This document shows, in pieces, positions 3,587 through 61,225 of a DNA stretch of 64,000 nt. The stretch spans positions 5,376 to 69,375 of the forward strand of contig CASDYC010000001.1 of the NCBI GenBank assembly GCA_949285665.1, in the 5' to 3' direction. A model generated the notes under the pieces. It saw only the letters and a list, made by a program, of their open reading frames with translations, was not told the DNA's origin and did no database searches. Position 1 is the stretch's first letter. Each line of letters begins with the position of its first letter. The translations under genes were made by a program, and so were the position numbers. The stretch is from an uncultured bacterium. GTDB taxonomy: Bacteria > Bacillota_I > Bacilli_A > RFN20 > CAG-826.

Positions 3587-4885
3587 ATGCCTTATTACAT
3601 ATCGCTTCCAATAATCGCTGTTTTAATTGTATTATCAACAATGTTTTCAATGTCAGATATGGCTCTTTCAAGTGTCAATATTTTAAGAATTAAAAAAGAT
3701 GCCGAAAATAATAAAAGAAGTGCTAAAATTGCTTATAAATTAATTACTAATTATGAAGATACAATTTCTACAATTTTATTTTGTAACAATTTAACAAATA
3801 TTGGTATATCTTCAATAATGGTTTTTGTTGTTCAAAATTTAGCTGGTACAAACGAGACAATTGAAAATGTAATTTCAATTTTAATTTCTACATTTATTTT
3901 ACTTTTATGTGGAGAAGTTATTCCAAAGCAAATTGCAAAAATTTACAATTATAGACTTAGTTTATTCTTTTCTTATTTTGTTGTAACTTGTAAATACATT
4001 TTTTATCCATTTACATTTATATTTACAAAAATTGCTTATTTCTTTTCAAAATTATTCCTTAAAGGTACTAAAAAAGTTGAAGAAAATATTCAAACAGAAG
4101 TTGGTGATGAACTTCAAGAGATGGTTCAAACAATTGAAGATGAAGGAATTATAAATGAAGATAAAGCTGATTTAATTAGAAGCGCTATTGAATTTAACTC
4201 AACGGAAGCTTATGAAATAATGACTCCAAGAGTGGATGTTTTAATGTTTGATATTAATGATGATATTGAAAATTTAATTAATGATAGTGAATATTTTAGA
4301 TATTCAAGAATCCCAATTTATGAAGAAGATAAGGATAATATTGTTGGAATTTTACCAATAAAATTATTACAAAGAAAAATATTAACCAATTCTGACATTA
4401 ATTTAAAAGAATTAATTTATAAACCAACATTTGTCCCAAGAAGTATTAAAATAACAGATATTTTATCTTTATTTAAAAAGAACGGTCACCATATGGTTGT
4501 TGTTTTGGATGAATATGGTGGAGTAGAAGGTATTGTAACAATTGAAGATATTATAGAAGAATTAGTTGGTCCAATTTTTGATGAAACAGATAAAATTGAA
4601 AAAGAATATTCTGAAACAAAAGATGGTTATATTGTTTCTGGTAGCATGAATATTGATGATTTCTTTGAACTTGTTGAAATTGAACCAGAATTTGATGATC
4701 CAAGTTTTAATACTGTTTCTGGTTGGGTTATTGATAATCTTGAAAGATTCGCCAAAGAAAATGATGAATTTGATTTTGATAATTTACATATTAAAGTTTT
4801 AAGTGTTGATGAATACACTGTTGAGCGTATTCAAGTTACAATTAATAAAAAACAAGACGAAGAAGAAAATAAAAGTGAAGATTAG
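3587..4885 (+). CDS. CNNM/CorC-HlyC family membrane protein (DUF21, CBS pair and C-terminal CorC_HlyC domain)
   Basis: Same architecture as the upstream paralog, with an extra C-terminal CorC_HlyC-like transporter-associated domain (motif VVLDEYGG). Confidence 0.7.
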   Translation: MPYYISLPIIAVLIVLSTMFSMSDMALSSVNILRIKKDAENNKRSAKIAYKLITNYEDTISTILFCNNLTNIGISSIMVFVVQNLAGTNETIENVISILISTFILLLCGEVIPKQIAKIYNYRLSLFFSYFVVTCKYIFYPFTFIFTKIAYFFSKLFLKGTKKVEENIQTEVGDELQEMVQTIEDEGIINEDKADLIRSAIEFNSTEAYEIMTPRVDVLMFDINDDIENLINDSEYFRYSRIPIYEEDKDNIVGILPIKLLQRKILTNSDINLKELIYKPTFVPRSIKITDILSLFKKNGHHMVVVLDEYGGVEGIVTIEDIIEELVGPIFDETDKIEKEYSETKDGYIVSGSMNIDDFFELVEIEPEFDDPSFNTVSGWVIDNLERFAKENDEFDFDNLHIKVLSVDEYTVERIQVTINKKQDEEENKSED

Positions 4886-5830: not shown

Positions 5831-7022
5831 TTTAGTTTTATTTTCAGTTTTATCATTTTCATTTTTAACAAGTGCTGGTATAAATAATAATAAAATAGAA
5901 GATGGAACCTATATCTATCAAGATGAATACAAAATAGAAGATTTTGTAATGGAATATGATAGAACTGAAATTGTTTATCATGAGCATGGACAACCAAGTA
6001 GAGATCAGCCTCATTATTATTATAAAATAAAATTTAATTATACACCTTTAGTTAAAAATGCTATTAAAGCATCTTTTGAAGTTGAAACAAAAGGTGGAGT
6101 TTTTAAAGTTGATTTACCTTCAAGAATGTCTTCTATAAGTCGAAAATATCAAGCAACTTGCGAATTTTATTTTGATAAAAGTGAAGATTTCATTGATTTT
6201 AGATTTAATTATGGTGTTAATGATACATTTATAAGTTTATATAATTCTGAATTTAAAGCCTCAACAACAACACTAAATATTAATCAAGATGATTTATTAA
6301 CACAAAAAATATTTGAATTCGAACAAGGAGTCCCGGTAATTTTAAATGGAAGATTTACAAATTTAATTCAAGTATATGATTTTTCAACATTAAGGTATAA
6401 TGACATACATGATTTATATTATGGTAAAGTTGATTATAGTTGTTATAAGTATAGATACACAGACAACGATCCTGAAAATCCTATACTAGATTCAAATCTT
6501 AATTCAAAACGTGTGAGATGCTCACATTATAGAGATGTTAATACATCTTTAAAAATGTGCCTAAATATTAAATTTAACGAAGATACAATTAGTTGTCATT
6601 TTACTGGTTATGATGCTCAATGCGGTAGCACTGATAGAGGCGGACATTACGATTATAGCTATATTTATAAAGATGGATACATGGTTTTAGAAGATGTAGT
6701 CACTGATGGTAAAGTAAAAATGCATTATAGCGACAACCCATCTTATATGGTTAATGTATTAGAAAAAGATGTAAATAGATATTTAAAAACTGGATATAAA
6801 ATGTCAGATGCAATATATTTTGCAAATAATTTAGATTCTTACAAAGGGTTTAGATCGATGTATTGTAGACCAACTTTTTCTTTAGACAAACTTTATATAT
6901 CTTGCTCAAATGAAAAAATTGGTTTTAGAAAAGAATTATATTTTAATCACCAAAATGATTATTATCTAAATGGACAATTTAATACTGGTGATAATAAGTA
7001 TAATGAGGTGTTTATTGTTTAA
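5811..7022 (+). CDS. secreted hypothetical protein (signal peptide)
   Basis: N-terminal hydrophobic signal MKVSKGSLVLFSVLSFSFLTSAG. First gene of a pilus/secretion-like cluster. Confidence 0.4.
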   Translation: MKVSKGSLVLFSVLSFSFLTSAGINNNKIEDGTYIYQDEYKIEDFVMEYDRTEIVYHEHGQPSRDQPHYYYKIKFNYTPLVKNAIKASFEVETKGGVFKVDLPSRMSSISRKYQATCEFYFDKSEDFIDFRFNYGVNDTFISLYNSEFKASTTTLNINQDDLLTQKIFEFEQGVPVILNGRFTNLIQVYDFSTLRYNDIHDLYYGKVDYSCYKYRYTDNDPENPILDSNLNSKRVRCSHYRDVNTSLKMCLNIKFNEDTISCHFTGYDAQCGSTDRGGHYDYSYIYKDGYMVLEDVVTDGKVKMHYSDNPSYMVNVLEKDVNRYLKTGYKMSDAIYFANNLDSYKGFRSMYCRPTFSLDKLYISCSNEKIGFRKELYFNHQNDYYLNGQFNTGDNKYNEVFIV

Positions 7023-13960: not shown

Positions 13961-14036
13961 GCCTACTTAGCTCAGCTGGTAGAGCAACTCATTCGTAATG
14001 AGTAGGTCAATGGTTCGAAACCGTTAGTAGGCACCA
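13961..14036 (+). tRNA. tRNA-Thr (anticodon CGT)
   Basis: 76 nt. The same acceptor and D arm as the tRNA-Asn copy. Anticodon stem ACTCA/TGAGT, loop TTCGTAA, T-loop TTCGAAA, 3' ACCA. Confidence 0.8.
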
Positions 14037-14047
14037 TAAAATATATC

Positions 14048-14075
14048 AATATCGGTTTTAAATCGATATTTTTTA
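14048..14075 (+). terminator. intrinsic terminator after the tRNA cluster
   Basis: AATATCG / CGATATT 7-bp stem with a 9-nt loop, followed by a T-run. Confidence 0.6.
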
Positions 14076-14119
14076 ATTTAAAATATTCTATGTGAAAAAC
14101 TTAAGAAAGAAGAAGTAAT

Positions 14120-14878
14120 ATGGCGCGTTTAGATATTTGTTTTTATAGTTGTATTTTAAAAAGAGATGTTAATTTTATTCTTATTTATCCAAGTCTTGCA
14201 TGTGGTAATGCCGGTGATTATAGAGAAAATTTTTATCAAGACAATAAAGAAAATAAATTTCCTTTATTGTTATTATTTCATGGATATGGTGGCAATTATA
14301 TGGCATATGAAAGATTTAGTAAAATAGATATGTACGCCGAAGAAAATAATATTGCTGTATGTATGATATCTGGAGAAAATAAATCATATTTAAATAAAGG
14401 AAGTAGTGATAACTTTTATGATTTTATTGAAACAGAATTAAAAGATTATTTATATGGTAACTTTAATATATCACCAAAGAAAGAAGATAATTTTATTGCT
14501 GGTTTATCAATGGGAGGATTCGGAGCATTATATCATGGCCTTTCAAATCCAGATGCGTATGCAGAAATTGGTGCTTTTTCTCCAGGAATTACTATGAGAA
14601 GAATAAATAAAAATAAAGAATCTACTTTAAAATCTTTAGTAATTAAAAATAAAAACAACTTACCTAGAATTTATATTTCTTGTGGAGAAAAAGATAATAT
14701 TGTAAAAGATGAAGTAGAAGATTTTATTTTATTTTTAAAAAAGAAGTATATTCATTTTGATTATAAGTGGTATAAAAATTATGATCATGAATGGAGATTA
14801 TGGGATAAAGAAATCGAAAATTTCATTAAAAAAATAAAAAGAACCGATTATTATAAAAATTCAAAAAAGAATGTTTAA
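14120..14878 (+). CDS. alpha/beta-hydrolase esterase
   Basis: LLLLFHGYGG oxyanion-region motif and the nucleophile elbow GLSMGGFGA (GxSxG). Confidence 0.6.
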   Translation: MARLDICFYSCILKRDVNFILIYPSLACGNAGDYRENFYQDNKENKFPLLLLFHGYGGNYMAYERFSKIDMYAEENNIAVCMISGENKSYLNKGSSDNFYDFIETELKDYLYGNFNISPKKEDNFIAGLSMGGFGALYHGLSNPDAYAEIGAFSPGITMRRINKNKESTLKSLVIKNKNNLPRIYISCGEKDNIVKDEVEDFILFLKKKYIHFDYKWYKNYDHEWRLWDKEIENFIKKIKRTDYYKNSKKNV

Positions 14879-14901
14879 TTTAAAAAATATTGAGGTTTTG
14901 C

Positions 14902-15534
14902 TTAGTTTTTTGAACTTAAACTCACAATTTTATTATTAAAAATAATTAAATAAACTAAATTATAAATTATAAAAACTAAGTTTAAACACATTAAAACGAG
15001 TGTTAATAATTTATAATTGATTAATGAAAATAAACTAATTAATACAATATTTGAAATTAATAATAATGGTAATAGTATAAATGAGGTAATATTAAACTTT
15101 TTATTTGAAACCTTTTTTAAATCAAGAAATTTTCCACATACTAATATAATATTAAATAAGAAACATAATATTGGAACTTGATACAATAAATCATTATTAT
15201 TAAATGCATAAGTAGCTATTAAAGAATAAATAGATAATATAAAAATGAGTAACAAATATGATATGTTATAAAATTTTAAAAAATTATAAGATAATATAAC
15301 TAACAAACATGAAACAATAAATAAACACATACTTACTTTTACAAAATTATCTAAATAAATTGTGCCAATAGCTACACCTAGTAAAATTATAATTACAAAC
15401 ATTAAAATAAGAGAACCATTAGGGTGAACTTTATTTGCAAAACGTTGCTTCCTTGTTAATTCAATTCTATCATCAATTTCTTTATCGCTATTTTCAGTTT
15501 CTTTTAAAATTTTATCTTTATTATTTTCTTCCAT
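14902..15534 (-). CDS. polytopic membrane protein, hypothetical
   Basis: 210 aa. Acidic N-terminus followed by 5-6 hydrophobic helices. Confidence 0.4.
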   Translation of the reverse strand: MEENNKDKILKETENSDKEIDDRIELTRKQRFANKVHPNGSLILMFVIIILLGVAIGTIYLDNFVKVSMCLFIVSCLLVILSYNFLKFYNISYLLLIFILSIYSLIATYAFNNNDLLYQVPILCFLFNIILVCGKFLDLKKVSNKKFNITSFILLPLLLISNIVLISLFSLINYKLLTLVLMCLNLVFIIYNLVYLIIFNNKIVSLSSKN

Positions 15535-15614
15535 ATGTAAAATTATAGTTTAAAATTGTTATCTTATAAATAAAAACTTTTATGAATTAAAGTTATATAG
15601 TAAAATAGTTTCGT

Positions 15615-15688
15615 GCATCATTAGTTCAATGGTAGAACCTTGGCTTCCCAAGCCAATGATACGAGTTCGATTCTCGCATGGTGCTCCA
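15615..15688 (+). tRNA. tRNA-Gly (anticodon CCC), the prophage integration target
   Basis: 74 nt. Acceptor GCATCAT/ATGGTGC (one G-U pair), D-stem GTTC/GAAC, anticodon stem TTGGC/GCCAA, loop TTCCCAA, T-loop TTCGATT with an A49-C65 mismatch, discriminator U, CCA. The 3' 18 nt are duplicated at attR. Confidence 0.75.
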
Positions 15689-15780
15689 AATGATATAAAA
15701 TGCCGATTTTATCGGCTTTTTTTGTTGCTTGGGGGTTATTTGGGGGTTATTTTGGGGGTTATTTGTTTTTTACGTTGACA
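15671..15780. repeat. attL: 110-bp direct repeat (tRNA-Gly 3' end, terminator, 3x GGGGGTTATTT and ACGTTGACA)
   Basis: Near-identical (about 95%) to 61226-61334. The differences are one 5-6-nt block (gttgct versus attct) and one T indel. Confidence 0.85.
15698..15723 (+). terminator. intrinsic terminator after tRNA-Gly (inside the att repeat)
   Basis: GCCGAT ttt ATCGGC stem-loop followed by T7. A copy lies in attR at 61253-61278. Confidence 0.6.
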
Positions 15781-15810
15781 GTAGTGTCAACATTTAAAAT
15801 AATTTAAAAT

Positions 15811-16113
15811 ATGTCAACTTTAATTTATAATTATTACATGAATAATTATTTAACACTTGAAGAATTTGAAAAAGAATTGCTAAAAGATGATGATTTTAAA
15901 GTTGTTTATAAATCAAGTCAAATGGTCGCTAAAATAATTTATTCTTTATCAAATTTTAGAAAAAGTAATGGAATAAGCCAAGAACAATTATCTTCTAAAA
16001 TAGGCATTTCACAAAAAGTAATTAGTAATATCGAACGTTTAAAAGTATCTCCTAATCTTGATACATTATGCAAAATGAAGATTGGTTTAGAAATATTGGT
16101 AAAAGAAAAATAA
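15811..16113 (+). CDS. XRE-family HTH protein (prophage left-end cargo)
   Basis: C-terminal HTH_XRE-like region (ISQEQLSSKIGISQKVISNIERLKVSPNLDTL). Confidence 0.45.
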   Translation: MSTLIYNYYMNNYLTLEEFEKELLKDDDFKVVYKSSQMVAKIIYSLSNFRKSNGISQEQLSSKIGISQKVISNIERLKVSPNLDTLCKMKIGLEILVKEK

Positions 16114-16131
16114 TTATATTAAAATATTTAC

Positions 16132-17130
16132 ATGAAAAATGTGAATAAAACCATTAATTTAATGATTAATAAATCCAAAGCTAATTTTCTTTACGCTATC
16201 GAAACTTTTAATAAACCTAAATTAGAGACTAAATTAGAAATATTTTTATTTTTAATTTGTAATGCTTGGGAGCTGTTATTAAAATCAAAATTATTAAAAG
16301 AAAATAAAAGTATATTTTATAAAGATAAAAAACATAAAAGCAGAACCATTTCATTAAAAGAAGCGCTTTGTAAAGTAATTCCAGATGAAAGAGACAAAAT
16401 TAGAATAAATTTAGAAACAATAATTGGTTTTAGAAATTCTGCACAACATTTCATTATTCCAGAATATGCAAATTTTTTAAATGATATAATTATAGCCAAT
16501 GTTCTAAATTTTATTGATAAGTTTAAAGATTTTAATGGTGATAATTTAGTCGATTATTTTGACAATAATTTTATTAATATCTTTGTTCCTCATGAATATT
16601 CTAAAATTGAAATAGTTTCTAAATACGGGAAAGATGTTTACGACAATTTTATTAAAAAAGAAAAATATATAAATAACTTATTAGATAAAAGTTTAGATGT
16701 GGAAAATAACGTAGATAAAAGAATAGCTATTACTTACAATTTTAAAGCACAATTAGTTAAGCGAAATGCCGATTTAACAATTTCAAATAAATATGCAAAA
16801 GGGAAGAGCCTTTTCAATGCCGTTATGATTTCTAATGAAAACTATAAATCGGTATACCCTTATACTTGTAGTAAAATAATAAAATTGGTGAATGAACGAT
16901 GCCAAGAAGAAAATATTAGTTTTACTCCAGTGAGTGATAAAGCATCTAAAAATTTTAATAAACATACACTCCAAATTTATTTAAAAAAATATAACATTAA
17001 AAATAATAGAGAATTCAGTTTTGAATTATCGACTAATGATAAAAATAAAAGTTATTTATATTCAGTAAATCTTTTAGAGAAAATAATTTCTGATTTAAAA
17101 AGCGATCCAGATATTTTTATCAAAAAGTAG
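16132..17130 (+). CDS. hypothetical cargo protein (DUF3644-like N-terminal region; possible Abi/defence-type)
   Basis: 332 aa. N-terminal FLYAIETFNKPK...NAWELLLKSKLL...IIGFRNSAQH pattern, recalled as DUF3644-like. The gene sits between attL and int, the classic accessory-gene location. Confidence 0.35.
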   Translation: MKNVNKTINLMINKSKANFLYAIETFNKPKLETKLEIFLFLICNAWELLLKSKLLKENKSIFYKDKKHKSRTISLKEALCKVIPDERDKIRINLETIIGFRNSAQHFIIPEYANFLNDIIIANVLNFIDKFKDFNGDNLVDYFDNNFINIFVPHEYSKIEIVSKYGKDVYDNFIKKEKYINNLLDKSLDVENNVDKRIAITYNFKAQLVKRNADLTISNKYAKGKSLFNAVMISNENYKSVYPYTCSKIIKLVNERCQEENISFTPVSDKASKNFNKHTLQIYLKKYNIKNNREFSFELSTNDKNKSYLYSVNLLEKIISDLKSDPDIFIKK

Positions 17131-17253
17131 TTGAATAATCACAAATATATAGTATTATAATAATAGATTAACTTGTTGAAAGAGAATGCTGAAGTTGGCG
17201 GTGCCAGTAGTCGCAAGATTAGAATTCTTCTCGCACTTGGGGTTAATCTTTTT

Positions 17254-18360
17254 TTATACTAACTTATCAATTATGTCTTTATTTATATTTGGAAATAAAT
17301 GAGAATAAGTATCAAGAGTTTGTTGAGTTGAAGCATGTCTTAAGTGCTTTGATACAACTAAAATATTAACACCCTGGTTAATCATACGTGATGCCATTGA
17401 ATGCCGTAAACCGTGTTTTGTAATATGAGGAACTCCGGCAAGTTCAATATGAGCATCCATAACTCTTTTAATTGAAGTTCTTGAAGTGTGCTTAATAAAG
17501 AAAATATAATCATCTGGATTAGGGCAATTTTCTTCCTCATATATTTTTAACTCATCCATTAAGAAAGTTGGAAGTGTGACAGAGTTTGAAGAAGATGAGT
17601 TTTTAGTAGTTGCATCATGCCCATGCTTATCTAATTGGCGTTTAATAGAGATAGTTTTGTTTGCATAGTTTATATCTTTAAATTTAAGACCTAAAAGCTC
17701 TCCAATTCTTAAAGCGCCCCAGTAAGTAACTTCAAAAAGTAGTTTCCATTTTTTCTCATCTTCAGCAAAACTATTAATAAATTTGTTATATTCTTCCACA
17801 GTCCAAAATTGTAATTCTTTTTTAGGCTTTTTAGCTTCTTTAATTGGTTTTAAAAGAAGTTTGATTTTTCCACCCATTTCAAAAGAAAACATATCAAGAC
17901 TACAAGCATAGTCAATTACTGCTCTTAAAATAGCATAACCAAAATTAATCATTTTAGGGCATAAATCAACGCCTTGCATACTGACTTTATATTTATTTAC
18001 ACTTATTATAGATATCGCTTTATCAATAGGCTGTTTGATTTTAAAGTTAGGTTTTATATATTTGTTTATGAATAACTTTTGACTATATGCTGTTCCTTCT
18101 TTATTTGTTAGGTATTTTTCTTTAATATAGTCATTTAAGACATTATCAAGAGAATTTGCAACTCGACCATGGTAGTTTATTATTCTTTTCTTTTTATCTT
18201 CTTCAACAATTTCATCTTCAAGAAGTTTAAGTCTTTTTTTGCCAAACTCCGTAGTCCAGTTTTTATTTCTTATTTTAACTTTGGTAGTAGAACCATCGTA
18301 ATTATTAATATAGTATTGAATATAATATTGTTTTCTTTTTTTATCTAATATAATTGCCAT
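17254..18360 (-). CDS. int: tyrosine integrase (phage integrase family)
   Basis: 368 aa. C-terminal catalytic region HGLRHSMASRM...LRHASTQQTLDTYSHL with the R...HxxR...Y signature, plus ALRIGELLGL. Adjacent to attL. Confidence 0.85.
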   Translation of the reverse strand: MAIILDKKRKQYYIQYYINNYDGSTTKVKIRNKNWTTEFGKKRLKLLEDEIVEEDKKKRIINYHGRVANSLDNVLNDYIKEKYLTNKEGTAYSQKLFINKYIKPNFKIKQPIDKAISIISVNKYKVSMQGVDLCPKMINFGYAILRAVIDYACSLDMFSFEMGGKIKLLLKPIKEAKKPKKELQFWTVEEYNKFINSFAEDEKKWKLLFEVTYWGALRIGELLGLKFKDINYANKTISIKRQLDKHGHDATTKNSSSSNSVTLPTFLMDELKIYEEENCPNPDDYIFFIKHTSRTSIKRVMDAHIELAGVPHITKHGLRHSMASRMINQGVNILVVSKHLRHASTQQTLDTYSHLFPNINKDIIDKLV

Positions 18361-18508: not shown

Positions 18509-18853
18509 TTAACTATCATTAATTATAAAATCATTAATGAATTTACTAATTTTATTCAGTTCTTTTAAATCATCGATTTTTTCAATTAATTTATTAATTT
18601 CTTGTCTTTTTAAAATAACTTCTGAATCAATAATTCGTTCTCTTGTCTTAATACCTAAAATTGTTTCAATAGGCAAATGTAATGCTTGCGACAATAAGTA
18701 TATTGAGCCTCTTTTTATATTATCAATTTCTCCTGTTTCCCATCGTGAAACTGTGCTCTCACTTACATAACACATTTGAGCAACTTCTTTCATTGTTAAT
18801 TTTAATGAAATTCTTCGTTCTCTTAATATTTTTCCAACTTCGTTATTTTTCAT
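18509..18853 (-). CDS. CI-like repressor (HTH_XRE)
   Basis: 114 aa. N-terminal HTH (LTMKEVAQMCYVSESTVSRWETG). Divergent from a Cro-like gene, with operator repeats in between. Confidence 0.7.
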   Translation of the reverse strand: MKNNEVGKILRERRISLKLTMKEVAQMCYVSESTVSRWETGEIDNIKRGSIYLLSQALHLPIETILGIKTRERIIDSEVILKRQEINKLIEKIDDLKELNKISKFINDFIINDS

Positions 18854-19013: not shown

Positions 19014-19235
19014 ATGAACTTTAACAAACAAAAATTTAATGCAACTTTAGCTGAAAATGGAATGACAAAAAAAGATTTATGTAAAATTTTAAATTTAAAT
19101 CAAGCAACTATTTATAGAAAAATAAATAGAAATGGTGATTTTAATAGAAAAGAAATTAATAAACTTGTAGAAATTTTTGGTTTAGAGAAAACAGAATCCT
19201 TTTTATTTGATGAAAACTTGCAAAATGCAAGATAA
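19014..19235 (+). CDS. Cro-like small HTH regulator
   Basis: 73 aa. HTH MTKKDLCKILNLNQATIYRKI. GGGAGG RBS. Confidence 0.55.
   Translation: MNFNKQKFNATLAENGMTKKDLCKILNLNQATIYRKINRNGDFNRKEINKLVEIFGLEKTESFLFDENLQNAR
19217..19231. promoter_or_regulatory. third operator copy (identical 15-mer) at the 3' end of the cro-like gene
   Basis: CTTGCAAAATGCAAG is identical to 18984-18998 and lies 233 bp downstream of it. Confidence 0.45.
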
Positions 19236-29994: not shown

Positions 29995-31244
29995 TATAAT
30001 TGTTCCCCTTCCTTTTCGCTTGCGTATGTGCGCATGAATAAGCCTTGTTTTCTAAAATAATTAATTACTTTTAAATCTACATTTTTAAGCATTTTTGATA
30101 AGCAATAAATCTTGTTAAATGGCACATTTTTAAGATTTTCAGCAATACCAGCGAATAAAAGAAAGCAGTTTTTCATCCATTGAGCATCTGCAACGCTTCT
30201 AAATATTCTTATTTCAAAAGTTGCTTTTGAGTTAATTAAACAACGATTGTGGTCTGAGTTTAAATAATCGGTTGCATTACAAGATAAATCAAGTCTTTTT
30301 ATTGCTTCGTGGTAGTCTTTAATTTCATCGTATGTATAAAACTTACAATAACGCATTGAGTTTTCATCTCTTTTTGAAAGTTTTATAAAGTCTTCCTTGT
30401 ATATAGTCATAAAGTAAGCAAGTTTTAAAAAGTTTATCGCTTGTTCTTTTGAGTTATCACCAAAGACAAGTTTTGATATGTGTAAATGAATACCAGCGCT
30501 TTTAACGTTGTCATCATGACCGGTTTTTTTCATAAAATCAGCGATGATATTAAAATCTAATTGCTCTAAATATTTTCTTGAAAATACTTGACTAATCATC
30601 TCAAAGCCATAAGTTAAAGAGCCATCCATTTCAAATTTAAAATGTGTTTTTCTAGTTTTTCCATTTAAGTTATAAAAATCATCGGTTACTCTTGCATAAT
30701 AGCGGTTGTCTTTTCTAACTCTTAAACGGCTATTGTTAAAATTATCGATTTCAATTTCAAAGCCGTAGCCCTTAAAGTTGCTTTCATCCATTGTCTCGTT
30801 GTCTAGTTTAAAATATCTAACCTTGCTATCTCTTGCATCATTGCCCCAACCGTTATAATCAGAGTGATAACCGTTAATTACATACAAGTTTTTATATTCT
30901 TGTTCAAAGCAAGTATTGCAATATCTTGTGTCATTGCCCATGTAATGAGATTGAGTTTGTAAGTCTTGTGGTGCAATCCATTTTCCGCATTTATCACATT
31001 TTCTAAAACCAATATCACGCATTGCACGCTCAAGCGTGTCTATATTATCGCTTGCGTATATAAGCGTTTCAGTCTCTAATGTAAGTCTTTCATGTTGGTT
31101 TGTGTAAGTAGTAGTATCTAAATCAATAACTATTGTGTTGCTATTAACAAATAAGCTTATTAATGCTTCTTGGTCGCTTGTTACTAATTGAGCAACGTAT
31201 GATGCGTAAGTTTTTTTAATAGTAATAACATTGTATTTTTTCAT
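29994..31244 (-). CDS. amidoligase-like protein (PF12224-like GS-fold) with an N-terminal Cys4 zinc ribbon
   Basis: Motifs GYGFEIEI (E.E strand), DGSLTYGFE (DGS) and SAGIHLHIS (GxHxH), recalled from the putative-amidoligase family. CDKCGKW...CNTCF zinc ribbon. AAGGGGA RBS. Confidence 0.45.
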   Translation of the reverse strand: MKKYNVITIKKTYASYVAQLVTSDQEALISLFVNSNTIVIDLDTTTYTNQHERLTLETETLIYASDNIDTLERAMRDIGFRKCDKCGKWIAPQDLQTQSHYMGNDTRYCNTCFEQEYKNLYVINGYHSDYNGWGNDARDSKVRYFKLDNETMDESNFKGYGFEIEIDNFNNSRLRVRKDNRYYARVTDDFYNLNGKTRKTHFKFEMDGSLTYGFEMISQVFSRKYLEQLDFNIIADFMKKTGHDDNVKSAGIHLHISKLVFGDNSKEQAINFLKLAYFMTIYKEDFIKLSKRDENSMRYCKFYTYDEIKDYHEAIKRLDLSCNATDYLNSDHNRCLINSKATFEIRIFRSVADAQWMKNCFLLFAGIAENLKNVPFNKIYCLSKMLKNVDLKVINYFRKQGLFMRTYASEKEGEQL

Positions 31245-31371
31245 AGTATTTTATTTTCCCCTTAATTTTCTGCTCATTTTGCTTTATAATTAAGAGTGCA
31301 AAAGGGCTTAAAAACTCTTGTGTAATCGCTTGTTTTTTCTAGTTTGCCGACTTGTTAAACGGGCGATTTTT

Positions 31372-31554
31372 TTATTGCTTATTGACGTCACCTTCGATTA
31401 ATTTAGCCAAATAAGCACTTTTTGATGGTTGACTTTCAATTTTATCTATTAAGTGTTGTTGTGTATCTTTTCTAAGCATTAATCGATAATATTTATAAGT
31501 CTTTTTCTTGTATTTATAATTGCTTTTATTATCTTTTCTTGGCGTTGTTTTCAC
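31372..31554 (-). CDS. small basic ribbon-helix-helix-like protein (paralog 1 of 3), GTG start
   Basis: KTYKYYRLMLRKD (beta strand), TQQHLIDKIES (helix) and SKSAYLAKLIEGD (helix) follow the Arc/MetJ/CopG pattern. Preceded by GGAAGGGGG. Directly upstream of the amidoligase gene. Confidence 0.4.
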   Translation of the reverse strand: MKTTPRKDNKSNYKYKKKTYKYYRLMLRKDTQQHLIDKIESQPSKSAYLAKLIEGDVNKQ

Positions 31555-31584
31555 CCCCTTCCTTAAGTTGTAGGGCTTCCGCCC

Positions 31585-31680
31585 TTGACTTATACGTTTT
31601 AGTTTCTTATAATAATTGTGAACTTGGTAATCCAGAGATTAATTGTGATTCTAAACTCATAATTAACTCTGGTTTTTTTA
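31585..31680 (+). promoter_or_regulatory. promoter-like site plus intrinsic terminator mini transcription unit (unit 1), antisense to the minus-strand operon
   Basis: TTGACT, a 17-nt spacer and TATAAT at 31585-31613. CCAGAG...CTCTGG hairpin at 31632-31672 followed by T7. Confidence 0.4.
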
Positions 31681-31776
31681 TTTTTCTTTACCTTAAGTCT
31701 CACATTTATAATTAAACGCTTTCGTCAAGGGTTGCCCTATTAGTAAGTAAGTCATATTTAACAACCCCTTACACGT

Positions 31777-31822
31777 ATGTATGCAAGCGTGTTTCCTTGC
31801 TTGCAATAATAATTTAACATAG
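31777..31822. repeat. conserved hairpin block (copy 1): TGCAAGC gtgtttcctt GCTTGCA plus AATAATAATTTAACAT
   Basis: 33 nt identical to 32278-32310. A diverged third copy lies at about 32793-32835. Confidence 0.5.
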
Positions 31823-31856
31823 GCGTTCACCTAATGCAACATATATTTTTATTTTT

Positions 31857-32035
31857 TTATTGTTGCATGTCTTTTTTGATTAAGTTTACTAGATAATCAT
31901 TTTTGCTTTTTTGTTTTTCTATTTTCTCTATTAAGTCTTTTTGATTATCGATTCTTAATCTTAGAGTGTAAGATTTATAAGTCTTTTTGTTGTATCGATT
32001 TTGTCTTATCGTTGATTTTTTGGCGATATTTTCAC
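31857..32035 (-). pseudogene. RHH-like paralog 2; apparent frameshift at an A6 tract near the 5' end
   Basis: The GTG frame gives VKISPKNQR-stop. The +1 frame continues KKSTIRQNRYNKKTYKSYTLRLRIDNQKDLIEKIEKQKSKNDYLVNLIKKDMQQ, which is homologous to paralog 1. One extra A would restore the frame. Confidence 0.3.
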
Positions 32036-32045
32036 CCCCTTCCTA

Positions 32046-32119
32046 TTGATTTTTAAAACTCTCACTGCTATAATGATGCTGAGATATTTGAGATGACTAA
32101 TGTTTAGTCATCTTTTTTT
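32046..32119 (+). promoter_or_regulatory. promoter-like site plus intrinsic terminator mini transcription unit (unit 2)
   Basis: TTGATT, a 17-nt spacer and TATAAT at 32046-32074. 9-bp hairpin AGATGACTA/TAGTCATCT at 32091-32113 followed by T7. Confidence 0.4.
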
Positions 32120-32277
32120 ATCTCATGGATTAATAAAATTAACAAGATTAATGTAATAATTAAATCCATATAATTTATTAACCTTTCTACTATTAAGCAT
32201 TAAACCGGTGTAAGTTTTTTAAGTATGTTTAATAGCAGTGAGAGAAACTTTACACTTTATTAATGTAATAGTCTCAT

Positions 32278-32323
32278 GCGTATGCAAGCGTGTTTCCTTG
32301 CTTGCAATAATAGTTTAGCATAA
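32278..32323. repeat. conserved hairpin block (copy 2)
   Basis: GTATGCAAGCGTGTTTCCTTGCTTGCAATAATA is identical to copy 1. Confidence 0.5.
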
Positions 32324-32396
32324 TGAAACATTATTGCAATACCTTTTTTAAAAATATTTTAATTTTTATTTTTTATTACTGAAGTAATAAGATTTT

Positions 32397-32567
32397 TTAT
32401 TTTTTTAAATCGTTTTGAATTAGCGATAAAATATAAGCGTTTTTTGATTTAACACTTTCTAATTTTTCTATTATATCGCTCTGGGTATCTTTTCTAACTT
32501 GTAATAAATAACGCTTGTATGTCTTTTTTTTATATTTATTACTTGCGATTGTTTGCCTTGTTCCCAT
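32397..32567 (-). CDS. small basic RHH-like protein (paralog 3), ATG start with AAGGGGGA RBS
   Basis: 56 aa: MGTRQTIASNKYKKKTYKRYLLQVRKDTQSDIIEKLESVKSKNAYILSLIQNDLKK. Below the 60-aa cutoff of the ORF track. Same beta-alpha-alpha pattern as the other two. Confidence 0.4.
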   Translation of the reverse strand: MGTRQTIASNKYKKKTYKRYLLQVRKDTQSDIIEKLESVKSKNAYILSLIQNDLKK

Positions 32568-32583
32568 GATTTTATATTCCCCC

Positions 32584-32662
32584 TTGACAAAATAAAAACC
32601 CGTGCCATATAATATTAATGAAAGATTTAGATATTAGAGTTTAGTCATCTAATATCTTTTTT
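32584..32662 (+). promoter_or_regulatory. promoter-like site plus intrinsic terminator mini transcription unit (unit 3)
   Basis: TTGACA, an 18-nt spacer and TATAAT at 32584-32613. GATATTAG/CTAATATC hairpin at 32630-32656 followed by T6. The loop shares GTTTAGTCATCT with unit 2. Confidence 0.4.
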
Positions 32663-32935
32663 ATTTCAATTAATATCTTACGTATTAGAATTAAAAGTAA
32701 AATCTTTTTCATTCTAACGCATCCCCCTTTCTAGTTTTAATCCTAGCTCAAGATTACTAACTAGCGGTTGCCTTATGATGCTATGACACGGGTGCAAGTA
32801 AGCTTTTTCCTTACATGCATTAATAGTATGACATAAGTATATACACATTACAATATATTTTTAATTATTTTTTTATTTTTTTATGCGTGTTTGCGTATGC
32901 TTTCGCGTGCGTGTGTGCGTATGCGTGATTATGTA

Positions 32936-33020
32936 TATATTCTTTTAGATTTATATTATTCTTTCAGATTTATATTATTCTTTGAGATTTATATATATTC
33001 TTTCATATTTATATTTTTAT
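32936..33020. repeat. four tandem ~20-bp iterons (tattctttNagatttata-like)
   Basis: attcttttagatttat / attctttcagatttat / attctttgagatttat / attctttcatatttat in a non-coding stretch. Confidence 0.5.
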
Positions 33021-33316
33021 ATTGTATTTTCTATATCTATTTTTCTTTTTATTTATATGGCAATTTCAAAAATCTTAATTTTTAAAGATGAAAAAGATTA
33101 GAATAAAAAAAGATAATTTGATTAGATTATAAAAGAGGCGATTATTAATTTTTCTATATCATATATCACAATCAAGGTGTTTGATTTTCTTATTTCTTTT
33201 CATCCATCCAGAGCGTTAAAAATTGGCTTAAAATCTTATATTTTTATGTGGTGTCTTTTTCTTGTATTGCTCACATATCTATAAAACACCGATAAAACCG
33301 ATATTTTATAAAGTTT

Positions 33317-33340
33317 GGGGGTTAATTTGGGGGTTAATTT
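33317..33340. repeat. 2x GGGGGTTAATTT, related to the att-site GGGGGTTATTT triplets
   Basis: gggggttaatttgggggttaattt. The same G5TTA(A)TTT motif occurs 3 times in attL, 3 times in attR and once at 61089-61100. Confidence 0.5.
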
Positions 33341-33416
33341 TAGATGATTTATTGGATGTTGCTTCCTCTGGAAGCAAAACAACAACAAAAAAATTTTTAA
33401 ATTTTCTATATATTGG

Positions 33417-33453
33417 AACCCCCACCCGGAAGGCAAATTCACCCCGGGGCGGC
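33417..33453. other. GC-rich palindromic island upstream of the terminase genes (candidate cos/pac region)
   Basis: aacccccacccggaaggcaaattcaccccggggcggc in otherwise about 20%-GC DNA, including the CCCCGGGG palindrome. Preceded by the GCTTCC tct GGAAGC hairpin at 33361-33375. Confidence 0.3.
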
Positions 33454-33658
33454 TAAAATGCAATTATTGTTCTTTTTAAAATTTTCCTTATTTTTTCCTA
33501 TTTTTTTAAATTTTATTATTTTTTTTATATTTTTTTAATGTAAACTTTTCTTGCATTTTTGTCAATAAATGTTGATATTTGTAAACTTTTATGTTTAAAA
33601 TGCAACATTTTATTTACTTTTTGCAAGTCATAATAAAAACTTGCTATTTTTAGTATAC

Positions 33659-33688
33659 TTGACATTAAGTTAGTTAATGATTATATTG
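33659..33688 (+). promoter_or_regulatory. late-operon promoter candidate
   Basis: TTGACA, an 18-nt spacer, then TATATT. The -10 element overlaps the first ATG of the ORF at 33677, so the transcript may be leaderless or start at the ATG at 33695. Confidence 0.35.
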
Positions 33689-34040: not shown

Positions 34041-35843
34041 ATGTCGCTTGCAGATGAAAGACTTAAAGAATACGATAATGTCTTAACAGTTAATTTTCTA
34101 GGCAAAAAATACCCAGTTTATGTTTTAATGGAACATCTTTTAAAAGTGACTGATAAGGATGCTAGATGTGTTAAGTTTGTTTTATGGGATGAACAAATCG
34201 AACTATATAAAGAGATATGTAAGCAAAGACTAGAACATAAACCAGTTAGAATAAATATTTTAAAAGCTCGACAAATTGGCTATTCGACTTTTATTGCTGG
34301 TCTTTTATTTATTATTACTCTTTTCACTCCAAATATAAGAACTGGTGTTATTGCCGATACTGAAGCCCATGCTAAGAATTTATTTTCAAAGTATGAATAT
34401 TTTTATAGACACCTAGATGATAATAACCCAAATATTCAAAATAAGGACATTCCAGAAAACGACTTACTTACATATAAGCCAAAACTTGATTATGCAAGAA
34501 ATCAAACTTATATGAAAACAAAATATTCAAACTCTGAAATAGAAGTCTTAACAGCCGGAGATAATGCTGGTAGATCTAATAACTTCCATCTTCTTCATTG
34601 TAGTGAATGTGCATTTTATCAAAATCTAAAACTAACACTTAATTCACTTTTAGAGACAGTTTCAAATAACAATCTAAATTCTATGATATTTTTAGAAACT
34701 ACGGGCAATGGTTTTAACGAATATAAAGAGCGTTGGGACAAGGATTTAAGTGGTAAGACTTCATATAAGGCGTTCTTTTCTCCTTGGTGGAAGCATAAAG
34801 AATATAAAACAAAAGGACAACTTCCAAGATTAGAAGAATGGCTTTATCAAAAACAAAGCGAGTTAAATTTATCTGATGAACAGATGAATTGGATTTGGAA
34901 TAAATATTTAGATAAGGGTGATAAAGCACTCACTTTACAAGAATACCCATTTACTCCAGTTGATGCGTTCTTATCTACTGGTAATTGTCTATTTAATGCA
35001 GAAATAGTAGCAAAAAGAAAAGAAGAAATAATTAAAGAGATAGAAAATGTTAAAACTGGACAATTTATATATGAACCACATTATTCTCAAAACGGAGATA
35101 GAATTGAACTTTTAAATACAGAATTTGTAGAAAGTAGAAATGGACTTATTAAGATTTATAAAGAACCAATAGATGATCATCCTTATGTTGGAGTATGCGA
35201 TCCAAATGACGAAGGAAGTGATTATAACGCAGTTGTAATTATTGATAACTTTACCGGAGAACAAGTAGCAAGTTTTATAACTCGTGAATTAACTCATGAT
35301 AAAATTGCTTATCAGTTTTATTTACTTGGAAAAAAATATAACGATGCACTTTTATCTAATGAAATGAATAGAGGTGGTGCGATTATGGATTATTTAATTA
35401 AACTCGGCTACCCAAGACTTTATGTTAGACAAGACCAAAGTTATGAAAATTATAAACAATCCGTTAAATCAGAATTTGGTCATAAAATCACAAAGACAAA
35501 TAGAAATCCAGCAATTGAAAGTTTTAAAATCGCATTTAAAGAAAATCCAAAAATGATAAATGACTTTGATACGATTTGTCAAATGGAAACTTTTTCAAAT
35601 GTAGAACACGTTTCAAAAGATGGCCGTGTTACTTATAAAATTGAAGCAAGTGGCGGAAATCACGATGACTTAGTTATGGCTATGGCTGGTTATTACATTG
35701 TAAGAAATCAACAAAGTTTCTTGCCAAAAAGAGACGCAAGTAGAATTAAAGAAGCTTCAAAATTAGCGATGTTTGAAGATAACAAACATAAAAAAAGTCA
35801 AAAGAATATTTTATTTACAACATTTTCAGGGATTAGGTTTTAA
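34041..35843 (+). CDS. terL: terminase large subunit
   Basis: 600 aa. N-terminal ATPase with KARQIGYSTFIAG (Walker A-like) and a C-terminal nuclease region. Followed by the portal gene. Confidence 0.75.
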   Translation: MSLADERLKEYDNVLTVNFLGKKYPVYVLMEHLLKVTDKDARCVKFVLWDEQIELYKEICKQRLEHKPVRINILKARQIGYSTFIAGLLFIITLFTPNIRTGVIADTEAHAKNLFSKYEYFYRHLDDNNPNIQNKDIPENDLLTYKPKLDYARNQTYMKTKYSNSEIEVLTAGDNAGRSNNFHLLHCSECAFYQNLKLTLNSLLETVSNNNLNSMIFLETTGNGFNEYKERWDKDLSGKTSYKAFFSPWWKHKEYKTKGQLPRLEEWLYQKQSELNLSDEQMNWIWNKYLDKGDKALTLQEYPFTPVDAFLSTGNCLFNAEIVAKRKEEIIKEIENVKTGQFIYEPHYSQNGDRIELLNTEFVESRNGLIKIYKEPIDDHPYVGVCDPNDEGSDYNAVVIIDNFTGEQVASFITRELTHDKIAYQFYLLGKKYNDALLSNEMNRGGAIMDYLIKLGYPRLYVRQDQSYENYKQSVKSEFGHKITKTNRNPAIESFKIAFKENPKMINDFDTICQMETFSNVEHVSKDGRVTYKIEASGGNHDDLVMAMAGYYIVRNQQSFLPKRDASRIKEASKLAMFEDNKHKKSQKNILFTTFSGIRF

Positions 35844-35845
35844 AT

Positions 35846-36199
35846 ATGGTTAAAGAAATTGCAAGTTTATCACGAAGAAAACAAAAATTAGCACTAGATA
35901 TAGTAAATGTTTTAACTTATGCAAATATCGAAATGGATGTTTTAGAAATTATATCAAAAATTAATCCTAAAACACTTAAAACTCTTTGTGATTTTATCTC
36001 TTCAAAATCTAGTAAAGAGATTGAAGAGTTAATTATTAACTTAAATCACTTATCAAAATTAATTGATGTAGTTAATGCTCATAGTCAAGATCTAATTGAT
36101 ATCAAAACAAAAATAAGTGAAGCACCTTATAAAGAAGATAGCGCAGAAAAAATGATTAAAAGTTTAAGTAAAGGAGTTGAAACTCTAAATGTCAGATAA
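35846..36199 (+). CDS. hypothetical protein
   Basis: 117-aa ORF between terL and the portal gene. Confidence 0.3.
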   Translation: MVKEIASLSRRKQKLALDIVNVLTYANIEMDVLEIISKINPKTLKTLCDFISSKSSKEIEELIINLNHLSKLIDVVNAHSQDLIDIKTKISEAPYKEDSAEKMIKSLSKGVETLNVR

Positions 36200-38288
36200 G
36201 AAAACTACAAAAAGTTATGAAGCATATCGCTTTTATAGAGATAATTATTTTCTAAATTCAAACCTAGAAAATGTTTTAAAACAAGCACGAGATTTTTATT
36301 TAGGAAAACACTATGAAGGTAATGAAGAAGTAATTAACATGCCAAAACCAGTCTTTAATCTTTGTAGAGAAGCGGCTGAAAAAGTAACAAGTAAGTTATT
36401 ATCTAGCAATCCTTATTTCGCTTTTGTTGCAGATACCACAGAAGAAAATTGTAATTCAATAAGTCACTACTATGATTATTTACTTTCAAAAATGGGCAAT
36501 AAGAAAATAAGAGCTCAAATAGTAAGAAGAGCCTTAATAGATGGAGTTGGCGTATCAGTAACAAGTTTTGATAGTGATGAAATTGGAAGAGCAAAATTAA
36601 AAGGTTTCTTAAAAAGAAAAGTAATTTTAATTGAAGACTGTTTCTTTGCAAATCCATACTGTGAAGATATACAAGAGCAAGAATATGTTGGTTTTGTTGT
36701 TCCAATGCAAATTAAAGCCGCAAAAGAAATATTAGAAGAAACTAATAAGAAAAAAAGAAAAGAGAAATTAGATCTCATAGTTCCAGAAGATTATTTTGAA
36801 AATGAAAGTGCATATAAAGACTACGATGCAAATAAAATTAATGCTCAAACTATTAATGTTTATTTTAGATTTATGAGATTTAATGGTGATGTATTTTATG
36901 ATATTGAAACAAAATATGTAAGTCTTTTAAATAATCCACATTCGCTACAACCTTATGTAAATGAAGAAATTGCAAAATCTAAACTAAAAGATTTAGAAGA
37001 ACGTGAAAAAGATAATGACACTCTTAATAAACAATTTATCGATTATGATATGGACACTCAATCTTATTTAGTTCCAAGTAAAATCAAACAAGAAGAAGTT
37101 GATAAAGATTTTAATACTAAGAAAAAGAAGTTCAATTTATACCCAATTTCAATGTTTAAACCATTTCCAATTGAAGGAAGTATTTTAGGTCAAAGTTATG
37201 TATCTTTACTTGTTGCGAATAATAAAATAATTGACTATACAGCCTTATTAGTAATCTTAATCATGCAAAGTTCTGCATCTCCAAAATTAGTTGTTAAACC
37301 AGATGCTTTAAGAGGACAAATTATTACTAATGAACCAGGGCAAGTATTAATCGATTATACACTTGCTGGAAATGGTATTCAAAGAATGGAAGGAAGTGCA
37401 ATTAATAATTCTGTCTTCCAAGTTTTAAATTCTTTTATTGCTTTAACAAAAGATAATTATGGTTTTGCAAATATTGAAAATAATAGTGGTGCTAAATCAG
37501 GTTATGCTTATGAACAAGAAGTAAAACAAGGGAATTTAATGTGGGAACAACCACTTCAAGCACTTTATGAATATGACAAAGATGTTGCTTATATTGATTT
37601 ACTTTATATGCAATTCTATATCGATAATGCTTACTATATTGAGACTCATACGAGCGGTGAACTTCAAATGAACGAAGCATATAGACTTCAATATCAAGAT
37701 ATGGTTGATAGTGGAAATGCAAGTTTACCACAAGGGACAATACTTCCAAAAATGCATAAATCCGAAAGAAAAGAAGTTGATAAAGAAGTTTTCACTTTTG
37801 ATTATGACATTGTAATTGAAGTTGAAAATGGAATTAACGATAGTCAAGTCAGCGAAGCACAATATTTTGGTGAAGTATTTAGTCAAATTATGAGTGGTAA
37901 TATGGCAGCCGATAAAATTAGAGCTTTTGTTGATAATGATCCTAGATTTTCAAATAAGTTAAGACAAAGTATTAGCGATAGCTTAAAAGCTCTTGAAGTT
38001 AGCCAATTATCTTATAAAGATAAACAAATTCAAGCACTTCAAGCACAACTTCAAAATATCGTATCTCAAAGTTCTCAAGCAATGGAAGTTTATAAGAAAA
38101 CAAATCAACTTATGAAAGATAGATATGATGCTTTAACTAAATCTTATCAAGAAAACGTAAAGATGAATGAAGCAATTGCAAAATCTGCTCAAAATTCAAA
38201 GAATGCGGGACAAAAATTATCAGAAAGTGAAGTTAAAAGCATGAATGCAAAAGGGATTAGCGGTTATTCATTTGATACGACTACTTAA
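36189..38288 (+). CDS. portal protein candidate with a C-terminal coiled coil
   Basis: 699 aa. Lies between TerL and the scaffold/capsid genes. Confidence 0.5.
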   Translation: MSDKKTTKSYEAYRFYRDNYFLNSNLENVLKQARDFYLGKHYEGNEEVINMPKPVFNLCREAAEKVTSKLLSSNPYFAFVADTTEENCNSISHYYDYLLSKMGNKKIRAQIVRRALIDGVGVSVTSFDSDEIGRAKLKGFLKRKVILIEDCFFANPYCEDIQEQEYVGFVVPMQIKAAKEILEETNKKKRKEKLDLIVPEDYFENESAYKDYDANKINAQTINVYFRFMRFNGDVFYDIETKYVSLLNNPHSLQPYVNEEIAKSKLKDLEEREKDNDTLNKQFIDYDMDTQSYLVPSKIKQEEVDKDFNTKKKKFNLYPISMFKPFPIEGSILGQSYVSLLVANNKIIDYTALLVILIMQSSASPKLVVKPDALRGQIITNEPGQVLIDYTLAGNGIQRMEGSAINNSVFQVLNSFIALTKDNYGFANIENNSGAKSGYAYEQEVKQGNLMWEQPLQALYEYDKDVAYIDLLYMQFYIDNAYYIETHTSGELQMNEAYRLQYQDMVDSGNASLPQGTILPKMHKSERKEVDKEVFTFDYDIVIEVENGINDSQVSEAQYFGEVFSQIMSGNMAADKIRAFVDNDPRFSNKLRQSISDSLKALEVSQLSYKDKQIQALQAQLQNIVSQSSQAMEVYKKTNQLMKDRYDALTKSYQENVKMNEAIAKSAQNSKNAGQKLSESEVKSMNAKGISGYSFDTTT

Positions 38289-60935: not shown

Positions 60936-61112
60936 CTTTTTTATTCAATTTTTGCAAAATTTGTGTAAAAAACATAAAAATATGATAAAAACATACCATA
61001 TTTAACAAATTTAAGTTATATAAAAAAGCAAAATAAATTTCTTTTGTTAATGATTTTTTATGAGATTTAAATTTTAGATTAAAAAATTTGGGGGTTATTT
61101 TTTGATAAAACC

Positions 61113-61142
61113 TGACAAAATATGACAAAATATGACAAAAAT
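61113..61142. repeat. 3 tandem TGACAAAATA repeats (candidate integrase/Xis arm-type sites)
   Basis: tgacaaaatatgacaaaatatgacaaaaat lies about 85 bp inside attR. A G5TTATTT copy lies at 61089-61100. Confidence 0.5.
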
Positions 61143-61225
61143 AGTAAAAGTTATGTATTTATAAAAGTGCGTATTTATCGTAGTTTTAGATAAAATTAAA
61201 TATTTTGTGAATATTAAATCGGGGC

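Follow-up and report, generated by a model that had tools for sequence, protein, structure and literature searches.

A prophage at the 3' end of tRNA-Gly(CCC), flanked by a composite 110-nt direct repeat that was probably lengthened by the scar of an earlier related prophage

A prophage occupies the 3' end of a tRNA-Gly(CCC) gene in the window, i.e. the whole stretch of 64,000 nt of DNA that was analysed, and is flanked there by an imperfect direct repeat of 110 nt. We consider it probable, with good though not full confidence, that this arrangement arose by integration at tRNA-Gly(CCC) of a phage bringing its own core and P' arm, next to the scar of an older, related prophage. A temperate phage of an uncultured, low-GC Bacilli bacterium would integrate by tyrosine-integrase recombination into the 3' end of this tRNA gene, using an attP that would carry the last 18 nt of tRNA-Gly and a short trailer. 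Strand exchange would take place within a block of about 29 nt, by which the tRNA would be rebuilt at attL from phage DNA, while a fragment would be left at attR. The P' arm of the phage would bring in the tRNA terminator hairpin, a helically phased set of three GGGGGTTATTT units and, overlapping with a palindrome, a TTGACA promoter. The bacterial site would not have been naive: the decayed left end of an older prophage from this phage family, with the same module in the same order, would already have been present there. B' would for this reason resemble P', and only thereby would the repeat reach 110 nt. Such long flanking repeats would also allow prophage loss by ordinary homologous recombination, and we propose that an earlier prophage was lost in this way, so that a refreshed, phage-like module would have been joined to the old flank and the scar thereby renewed.

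The integration site and the prophage

The tRNA-Gly(CCC) gene is intact in the lysogen (15615-15688, + strand; ARAGORN; Rfam RF00005, 61.6 bits), and a search of the whole window with Rfam returned nothing beyond five tRNAs. Repeat comparison places the left copy of the direct repeat, on the attL side, at 15671-15780 (110 nt, + strand) and the right copy, on the attR side, at 61226-61334 (109 nt, + strand), 45,555 nt apart from start to start. The repeat begins at 15671 with the last two T-loop bases of tRNA-Gly(CCC), and its first 53 nt, which are identical between the copies, consist of 18 nt of the tRNA 3' end, 13 nt and the hairpin GCCGATTTTATCGGC with T7. The variable hexamer that follows (15724-15729, + strand) reads GTTGCT in the left copy and ATTCTT in attR, which amounts to three substitutions. 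Both copies end with ACGTTGACA, and one T past the second GGGGGTTATTT unit is missing from the right copy, which is composed of the tRNA 3' fragment, the trailer, the hairpin (61257-61271), ATTCTT, three GGGGGTTATTT units (at 61286, 61297 and 61308) and ACGTTGACA. Allowing up to three mismatches, the 18-mer TTCTCGCATGGTGCTCCA of the tRNA end occurs in two places only (0 expected), and at this threshold no third, decayed copy of the tRNA end was found that would mark the attR of an old prophage. GGGGGTTATTT is strongly overrepresented, with 11 matches at up to one mismatch against 0.72 expected, and six of its seven exact matches lie within the two repeats. A sequence-only reading of this DNA had already described an imperfect 110-nt direct repeat at the 3' end of tRNA-Gly(CCC), which repeat comparison, ARAGORN and Rfam confirm. 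Of the mismatches that it had given, the T indel holds, while the right-hand variant 'attct' had lost one T.

A complete phage gene set with an integrase sits between the repeats. The prophage body (15781-61225) makes up 45,555 nt (45.6 kb) together with the left repeat copy; the DNA has about 25% GC and uses translation table 11. It comprises genes for a tyrosine integrase of 368 aa (17254-18360, - strand; PF00589 with E = 1e-22 for residues 187-356; PHROG 1 integrase with E = 1.5e-49), two HTH proteins, one cI-like (18509-18853) and one Cro-like (19014-19235), YqaJ/RecT genes, and genes for the large terminase subunit (34041-35843), the portal (36189-38288), the major head (capsid) protein (39119-40384), a polyvalent protein of 2,585 aa with a PBECR3 nuclease domain (52094-59851) and an M78 peptidase (59921-60475). 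The whole tRNA stands at one junction and a 3' partial copy in direct orientation at the other, as is typical of a prophage in a tRNA gene. The integrase has the R..H-x-x-R..Y catalytic set, to which R218 (ALRIGE), H316 and R319 (KHGLRHS) and Y352 (LDTYSHL) are putatively assigned by position; these residues are invariant in an alignment of 16 members. Its N-terminus gave a weak SAM-like match and no Pfam arm-binding family at E <= 0.01, and two distant homologues, P0104 and P0107, carry PF14657. Within the prophage, no gene for an excisionase was recognised.

The best integrase match in the phage database, from Clostridium phage phi3626, is just 32% identical. IMG/VR held no matches to the 37-mer of tRNA end and terminator, the hairpin, the triple repeat of the P arm or the relatives of the integrase, the phage family being absent there, and neither an excised or free phage nor a phage contig carrying attP was found in that collection. 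A scan of JGI metagenomes for the 38-mer of CCA and terminator gave no match.

The junction was reconstructed by joining window positions 14000-15670 to 61226-64000 and was compared with contigs bearing the same flanking protein. Two contigs of the same species, L046 and L047, are free of the prophage and colinear with the window across the reconstructed junction, with 89% identity over 2,228 nt, and the alignment extends 509 nt beyond the join, to about window position 61734. From this colinearity we conclude that integration at tRNA-Gly(CCC) is shown to the extent that a comparison of sequences allows. The sequence-only reading had proposed integration into the 3' end of this tRNA gene, to be checked by comparing an attB joined from 15615-15670 and 61226 onwards with prophage-free relatives. 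Indeed, this junction matches L046 and L047, and the proposal is supported by the prophage between the repeats together with the colinear empty sites. One relative's contig holds a copy of the window's left-flank protein with 98% identity; contigs that encode precisely this protein end within the repeat and yielded no information.

To the right of the tRNA-Gly scar, genes vary among strains of one species, with a substrate-binding lipoprotein in the window (62167-64000), a truncated GH38 gene followed by LacI and PfkB genes in L020 (7923-9286) and directly a PfkB gene in L046 (4076-5089), which describes a variable sugar-utilisation region beside an integration hot spot.

Two further regions of the prophage deserve description. 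Between attL and the integrase gene lie two cargo genes assigned by Pfam, which encode an HTH_3 protein (15811-16113, + strand) and a DUF3644 and EC042_2821 nuclease-like protein (16132-17130, + strand); the latter falls into the PADLOC candidate defence family PDC-S19 (2.5e-70). This slot is a variable cargo site, the contents of which differ among sister phages: an AbiLi-like AAA_21 ATPase and a 165-aa protein in L016 (5169-6766), L018 and L048, an HTH protein alone in L017 (5435-5713), and nothing in L022 (6101-6200). The interval between the convergent cargo gene and the integrase gene (17160-17250) contains a GATTAAC...GTTAATC stem followed by T7, which is kept in L017 despite the different cargo. 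It is probably a shared terminator, a grading that we adopt because the z-score of the RNA fold is just -2.2. The second region is an ORF-poor stretch of 2.4 kb (31244-33677) with three repeated modules, two of which carry small ORFs on the - strand (31372-31554 and 32397-32567), both with a KKKTYK motif. It also holds a conserved element GTATGCAAGCGTGTTTCCTTGCTTGCAATAATA at 31779 and 32280 and a pair of GGGGGTTAATT units (33317-33339). With a further, GC-rich patch at 33415-33455, which precedes the packaging genes, this stretch may be a cos/pac or regulatory RNA region.

Composition of the direct repeat

Integrases of the same 90% cluster, which are 97-99% identical to that of the window, were traced to their own contigs. 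The left end of the prophage adjoins tRNA-Leu(CAA) in L009, L016, L018 and L048 and tRNA-Leu(UAA) in L017, so that, with tRNA-Gly(CCC), the same module stands behind three tRNAs. Everywhere the junction has the same order, namely the CCA of the tRNA, an 11-nt trailer (AATGATATAAA, ATTAATAAATA or TCTTATAAATA), the hairpin and T run, a variable hexamer, three GGGGGTTATTT units, the palindrome, a third TGTCAAC and the phage genes, and every trailer is followed by an invariant ATGCCGATTTTATCGGC and then a T run. The sole part of the repeat that varies with the occupied tRNA is a target-specific block (15671-15699, + strand) of 18 nt of tRNA 3' end and the 11-nt trailer AATGATATAAA. By comparison, the hairpin with its T7 (15702-15723) is invariant in attL of all five sister elements (L009, L016, L017, L018, L048) and in the remnants L007 and L020. 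The three GGGGGTTATTT units of the P' arm (15731-15764, + strand), spaced 11 and 12 nt, are constant in number and spacing in every attL seen, i.e. in the window and the same five elements, and deviate in the two remnants.

The inverted repeat GTTGACA-gtag-TGTCAAC (15774-15791) and the third TGTCAAC (15812-15818, + strand) were found as the sequence-only reading had described them. In eight elements the palindrome takes the form GTTGACA-N4-TGTCAAC, with invariant arms and a variable spacer (GTAG, GTGT, GCAG). TGTCAAC is not enriched across the window (7 found, 5.5 expected); three of its copies lie within 45 nt near attL, and all three are conserved in the sister elements.

We attribute the hairpin and everything to its right to the P' arm of the phage, because this module is common to sister prophages at tRNA-Leu genes. 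As judged from these alignments, the repeat is a composite of about 29 nt of target-specific sequence (15671-15699) and about 81 nt of phage P' arm. The earlier list of what the 110 nt contain thus stands, but its treatment as a single long common core does not, since about 29 nt are matched to the target and about 81 nt are a P' arm, which the empty site holds as an older scar. An integrase with 63% identity, located at tRNA-Leu(UAA), is accompanied by a variant module (GCCGATTTAATCGGC, then GGGGGTTATTTT, GGGGGTGATTTT twice and TTGACAAAATTGTC). The integrase with 44% identity (L024) has neither a tRNA nor the array nearby, from which we conclude that the module is confined to the closer integrase subfamily.

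Roles of the att motifs

The hairpin and T run score as an intrinsic terminator on both strands in a terminator scan, and the phage-supplied hairpin is predicted to terminate the rebuilt tRNA gene. A sigma-70-like promoter, TTGACA-17-AATAAT, which agrees with the consensus at 11 of the 12 positions and points into the prophage, is predicted at 15775-15803 (+ strand), with the palindrome lying across its -35 hexamer. Each arm (P and P') has three TGACA-type sites, about 95-140 nt from the core, and the GGGGGTTATTT (G5) units, one on P and three on P', are placed between the core and these distal sites. By analogy we infer that this layout may correspond to the arm-type sites and the architectural element of a lambda-type attP. 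The inverted repeat and the third TGTCAAC had been put forward as candidate core or arm-type integrase sites. We discard the first of these roles because they lie 95-140 nt from the tRNA end; the second is possible, and so is that of an operator of the overlapping promoter.

The latter possibility touches on nothing but these sub-features and can hold alongside the main explanation. A phage or cargo HTH protein would bind the inverted repeat and the third TGTCAAC as operators of the promoter TTGACA-17-AATAAT, and GGGGGTTATTT would be a promoter-upstream element, so that neither would be an integrase site. We give this reading an appreciable probability, although one clearly below even. The near-consensus promoter, the position of the palindrome over both the -35 hexamer and the spacer, and the HTH_3 gene directly downstream agree with it, as does the combination of tandem GGGGGTTATTT and (C)TTGACA in unrelated mobile elements. 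However, the module is kept even where the cargo behind it has the reverse orientation (L016, L018 and L048) and where the module itself abuts the end of the integrase gene (L022). Moreover, the TGACA-type sites are distributed over both arms, three in P and three in P', at similar distances to the core, as would be expected of arm-type sites, and the intergenic region of cI and Cro uses another palindrome, CTTGCAAAATGCAAG. Because of this different palindrome in the immunity region, the att-side palindrome was rejected as a cI operator.

Arrays of 2-4 tandem GGGGGTTATTT units with a period of 11-12 nt, followed within a few bases by (C)TTGACA (15731-15780 in the window), recur in unrelated mobile elements with 24-59% GC (L003-L006 and L027-L045; e.g. 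L034 166-260, L042 1319-1380 and L040 644-720). They are located in lambda-type head modules, between HTH_17-like and gpW-like genes, in a Mob_Pre-type element, upstream of a perfect TTGACA-17-TATAAT, and in an AlpA/integrase island, between the AlpA-like gene and an integrase fragment. This recurrence argues for a general promoter-upstream or architectural role over an integrase-specific site, and the conserved GGGGGTTATTT-TTGACA module may represent a portable promoter or architectural element. An HTH_17 homologue, which accompanies the array in other phages, was looked for within the window and not found, and among the papers searched none mentioned the 11-mer GGGGGTTATTT, on either strand, in a bacterial or phage context.

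The attP core and the exchange point

The P arm, on the other side of the prophage, carries a single GGGGGTTATTT unit (61090-61100, + strand), which is conserved in L011-L015, and three tandem (C/A)TGACAAAA(T/A) units with a period of 10 nt (61112-61141, + strand), which are identical in L011-L015 and are candidate arm-type or excisionase sites. The core-proximal 36 nt of the arm (61190-61225, + strand) are homologous to those of the tRNA-Leu(CAA) phage but about 30% diverged from them, in contrast to the remainder of the arm, where the two are nearly identical. L011 and L016 are the right and the left end of one tRNA-Leu(CAA) prophage (scaffold_95). The P arm of L011 is built as in the window, with one GGGGGTTATTT unit and three tandem TGACAAAATA, and past the diverged 36 nt it continues with 17 nt of the 3' end of tRNA-Leu(CAA), the trailer and the hairpin. 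The same arrangement is present in L012, which stems from another sample, whereas attR of the window, L013 and L014 has the P arm joined to 18 nt of tRNA-Gly. The sequences used for comparison all come from metagenome assemblies, where the module is a repeat; the joins of P arm and tRNA fragment, however, are unique sequences that recur in independent samples and are therefore not assembly chimeras.

On the P side, divergence sets in directly left of the 18 nt of tRNA, and on these alignments the left limit of the exchange zone is 15671/61226. Its right limit is most probably the trailer, since a naive site would share no further sequence, and the most probable position of strand exchange is 15671-15699. 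The crossover had previously been confined to the first 53 nt on the grounds of the mismatches between attL and attR. We retain this location as the best reading, because the sequence from the hairpin rightwards is common to sister prophages and the P side diverges to the left of the tRNA block; the argument from the mismatches fails, since they cannot tell on which side the exchange occurred.

In L018 (about 5875-5965, - strand), a 22-nt deletion runs from the variable arm as far as the T loop of the tRNA-Leu(CAA) at attL, where ARAGORN called no tRNA. It stops exactly where the attP/attB identity block has its left edge, and may be an aberrant product of recombination, which would fit strand exchange near that edge, or equally an assembly error.

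The scar of an older prophage

Beyond the right repeat copy, the bacterial side carries an older prophage scar (61335-61856, + strand), in which a decayed P' arm (TATGTGTAATAT ... CTGTCAAT) is accompanied by part of a phage gene. This fragment (61608-61856) is homologous to 54608-54852 in the gene of the polyvalent protein, over about 250 nt with a core of 106 nt at 85% identity. The same scar is present in the empty sites L046 and L047. Behind tRNA-Gly, L046 shows the hairpin with one base changed, GTTATT, the decayed units GGGTGTTATTT, GGGGGTTATTTT and GGGGTTATTT, a decayed palindrome GGTGACACAGGTGTCAAAG and GTGTCAATATTAATCATTTT, and further on the polyvalent-gene fragment. The scar is older than the present prophage, because the empty site already holds both the module and this fragment.

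Fresher remnants were found at tRNA-Gly in L020 and L021 and at tRNA-Leu(CAA) in L007. They consist of an attL-type module, the 3' part of a phage cargo gene of the L016 type and then host DNA, which in L020 begins inside the truncated GH38 gene. L007 and L020 had been candidates for empty sites and were rejected as such, being prophage remnants that run on into the cargo gene. Inside the L007 remnant (3780-4200, - strand), about 330 nt separate the arms of a long-range inverted repeat (GCTTGAGAGCCATACCC / GGGTATGGCTCACAAGC), which may represent a small element that was inserted.

The B' side of the tRNA-Leu lysogen (L011) likewise holds a decayed module, with two units of which one is GAGGG, and in both lysogens with both ends known the attL module is the canonical one with three units and the attR module deviates. 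Past the end of the repeat, the similarity between B' and P' is weak: it reaches z = 4.3 at best, with some P' variants, and falls short of significance with the P' arm of the window itself. The attR module of the window has four differences in 81 nt to the phage P' arm and about 10 in 81 to the empty site L046, and its closeness to the phage arm needs an extra assumption, either a renewed scar or strain variation. Among the sites compared, no naive tRNA-Gly site without the module was seen.

This closeness is one of the points that agree with a different placement of the core, inside the conserved module, i.e. in the hairpin or in GTTGACA-N4-TGTCAAC. The phage would then target copies of the module at several tRNAs, and the tRNA fragments in attP would be relics. 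The module is indeed already present at all sites seen, whether occupied or empty, the identity of the repeat stops exactly at GTTGACA, beside a palindrome shaped like a recombinase core, and three tRNAs are served by one integrase. We nevertheless regard this placement as improbable. The tRNA fragment in attP matches the occupied tRNA in both of the two lysogens with both ends known, while a relic would not follow the target. In its canonical form (three units, spaced 11 and 12 nt), the module lies throughout on the attL side, contiguous with the phage genes, and the attR copies deviate differently in each lysogen, as exchange to the left of the module predicts. The first integration at a naive tRNA would, moreover, be left unexplained.

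That the 110 nt represent a long native common core, captured from the region downstream of tRNA-Gly with no older scar involved, is very improbable. Long attP/attB identity blocks do exist in other tRNA-targeting elements such as HP1 and SLP1, but here the same downstream module stands behind two different tRNA-Leu genes, a fragment of the phage polyvalent gene lies on the bacterial side in the lysogen and the empty sites, and the remnants in L020 and L007 continue into a phage cargo gene.

Integrase and choice of tRNA

Over the 368 residues of the integrase, no column separates the window protein (tRNA-Gly) from those of four tRNA-Leu(CAA) phages (P0001, P0113, P0115, P0119), and the pairwise differences are 3-6, scattered and mostly conservative. 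The integrase of the tRNA-Leu(UAA) type (P0108) has four private residues (I61T, S127F, C134S, E306D). Residue 233 (A/S) was rejected as a marker of target choice, because P0115 has A233 and yet sits at tRNA-Leu(CAA).

The core-proximal part of attP, by comparison, does differ between tRNA-Gly and tRNA-Leu(CAA) phages, and wherever the P side is readable, the tRNA 3' end in attP is that of the tRNA occupied (two attP types, Gly-CCC and Leu-CAA). As no residue separates the integrases, yet each attP carries the 3' end of its own tRNA, targeting looks as if it were set by the attP core. We therefore put forward, tentatively and at nearly even chances, that the tRNA target may be programmed in cis by the short attP core and not by the integrase protein.

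Discussion

The feature described here belongs to an ordinary class, being a prophage att pair at a tRNA gene with a textbook junction, and the junction alone would just fix the boundaries of the prophage. The most interesting lead is the apparent choice of the tRNA in cis. If true, the tyrosine integrase of this phage family could be re-targeted naturally, the exchangeable address being the core-proximal 65 nt or so of attP, and such a system would be a candidate for programmable integration tools. Near-identical integrases with differing attP cores also constitute a natural experiment on the acquisition of new sites, which is an old question. The composite repeat further indicates that repeat length says little about the att core at sites that are used more than once; about three quarters of it are inherited scar here, by which automated callers of att sites and inferences on the crossover would be misled.

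In lambda-type attP, arm-type sites are combined with architectural bends, and tandem sites are represented by P'1-P'3 and the Xis sites. The attP described here is similar in that its roughly 280 nt carry short motifs on both arms (3+3 of the TGACA type and 1+3 of GGGGGTTATTT), its tandem triplets recall P'1-P'3 and the Xis sites, and the phased T-tracts between the core and the distal sites could by analogy act as a bend. It is different in that the P' arm also holds a terminator and a promoter, and in that no gene for an excisionase was recognised.

Prophage remnants and the serial use of integration hot spots at tRNA genes are known as well, and the decayed phage DNA beside the tRNA, the strain-variable neighbours and the repeated occupation are shared with them. 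What differs is that the remnant here keeps the attL-proximal arm in register, and therefore every new integration would create an extended imperfect direct repeat.

With phage integration at tRNA 3' ends according to the Campbell model, e.g. of Ms6 at tRNA-Ala (PMC1762012), the window has in common that the tRNA is intact at one junction with a 3' fragment at the other, that the identity block starts within or beside the T loop and extends past the CCA, that the integrase gene lies near the attL side, and that relatives show the empty site. Unlike in that model, the identity in the lysogen (110 nt) is inflated by the older scar, and a variable slot for defence genes separates the integrase gene from attL.

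The closest precedent for the apparent choice of target is mycobacteriophage Ms6 itself, in which editing of the attP core moved integration between tRNA-Ala genes (PMC1762012). In both cases one integrase would find its target by the identity of the attP core to the tRNA 3' region. In Ms6, however, single-base changes were engineered among near-identical tRNA-Ala genes, and efficiency was lost, whereas the phages compared here are natural, show no fixed difference in the integrase and carry cores for the unrelated tRNAs Gly-CCC and Leu-CAA.
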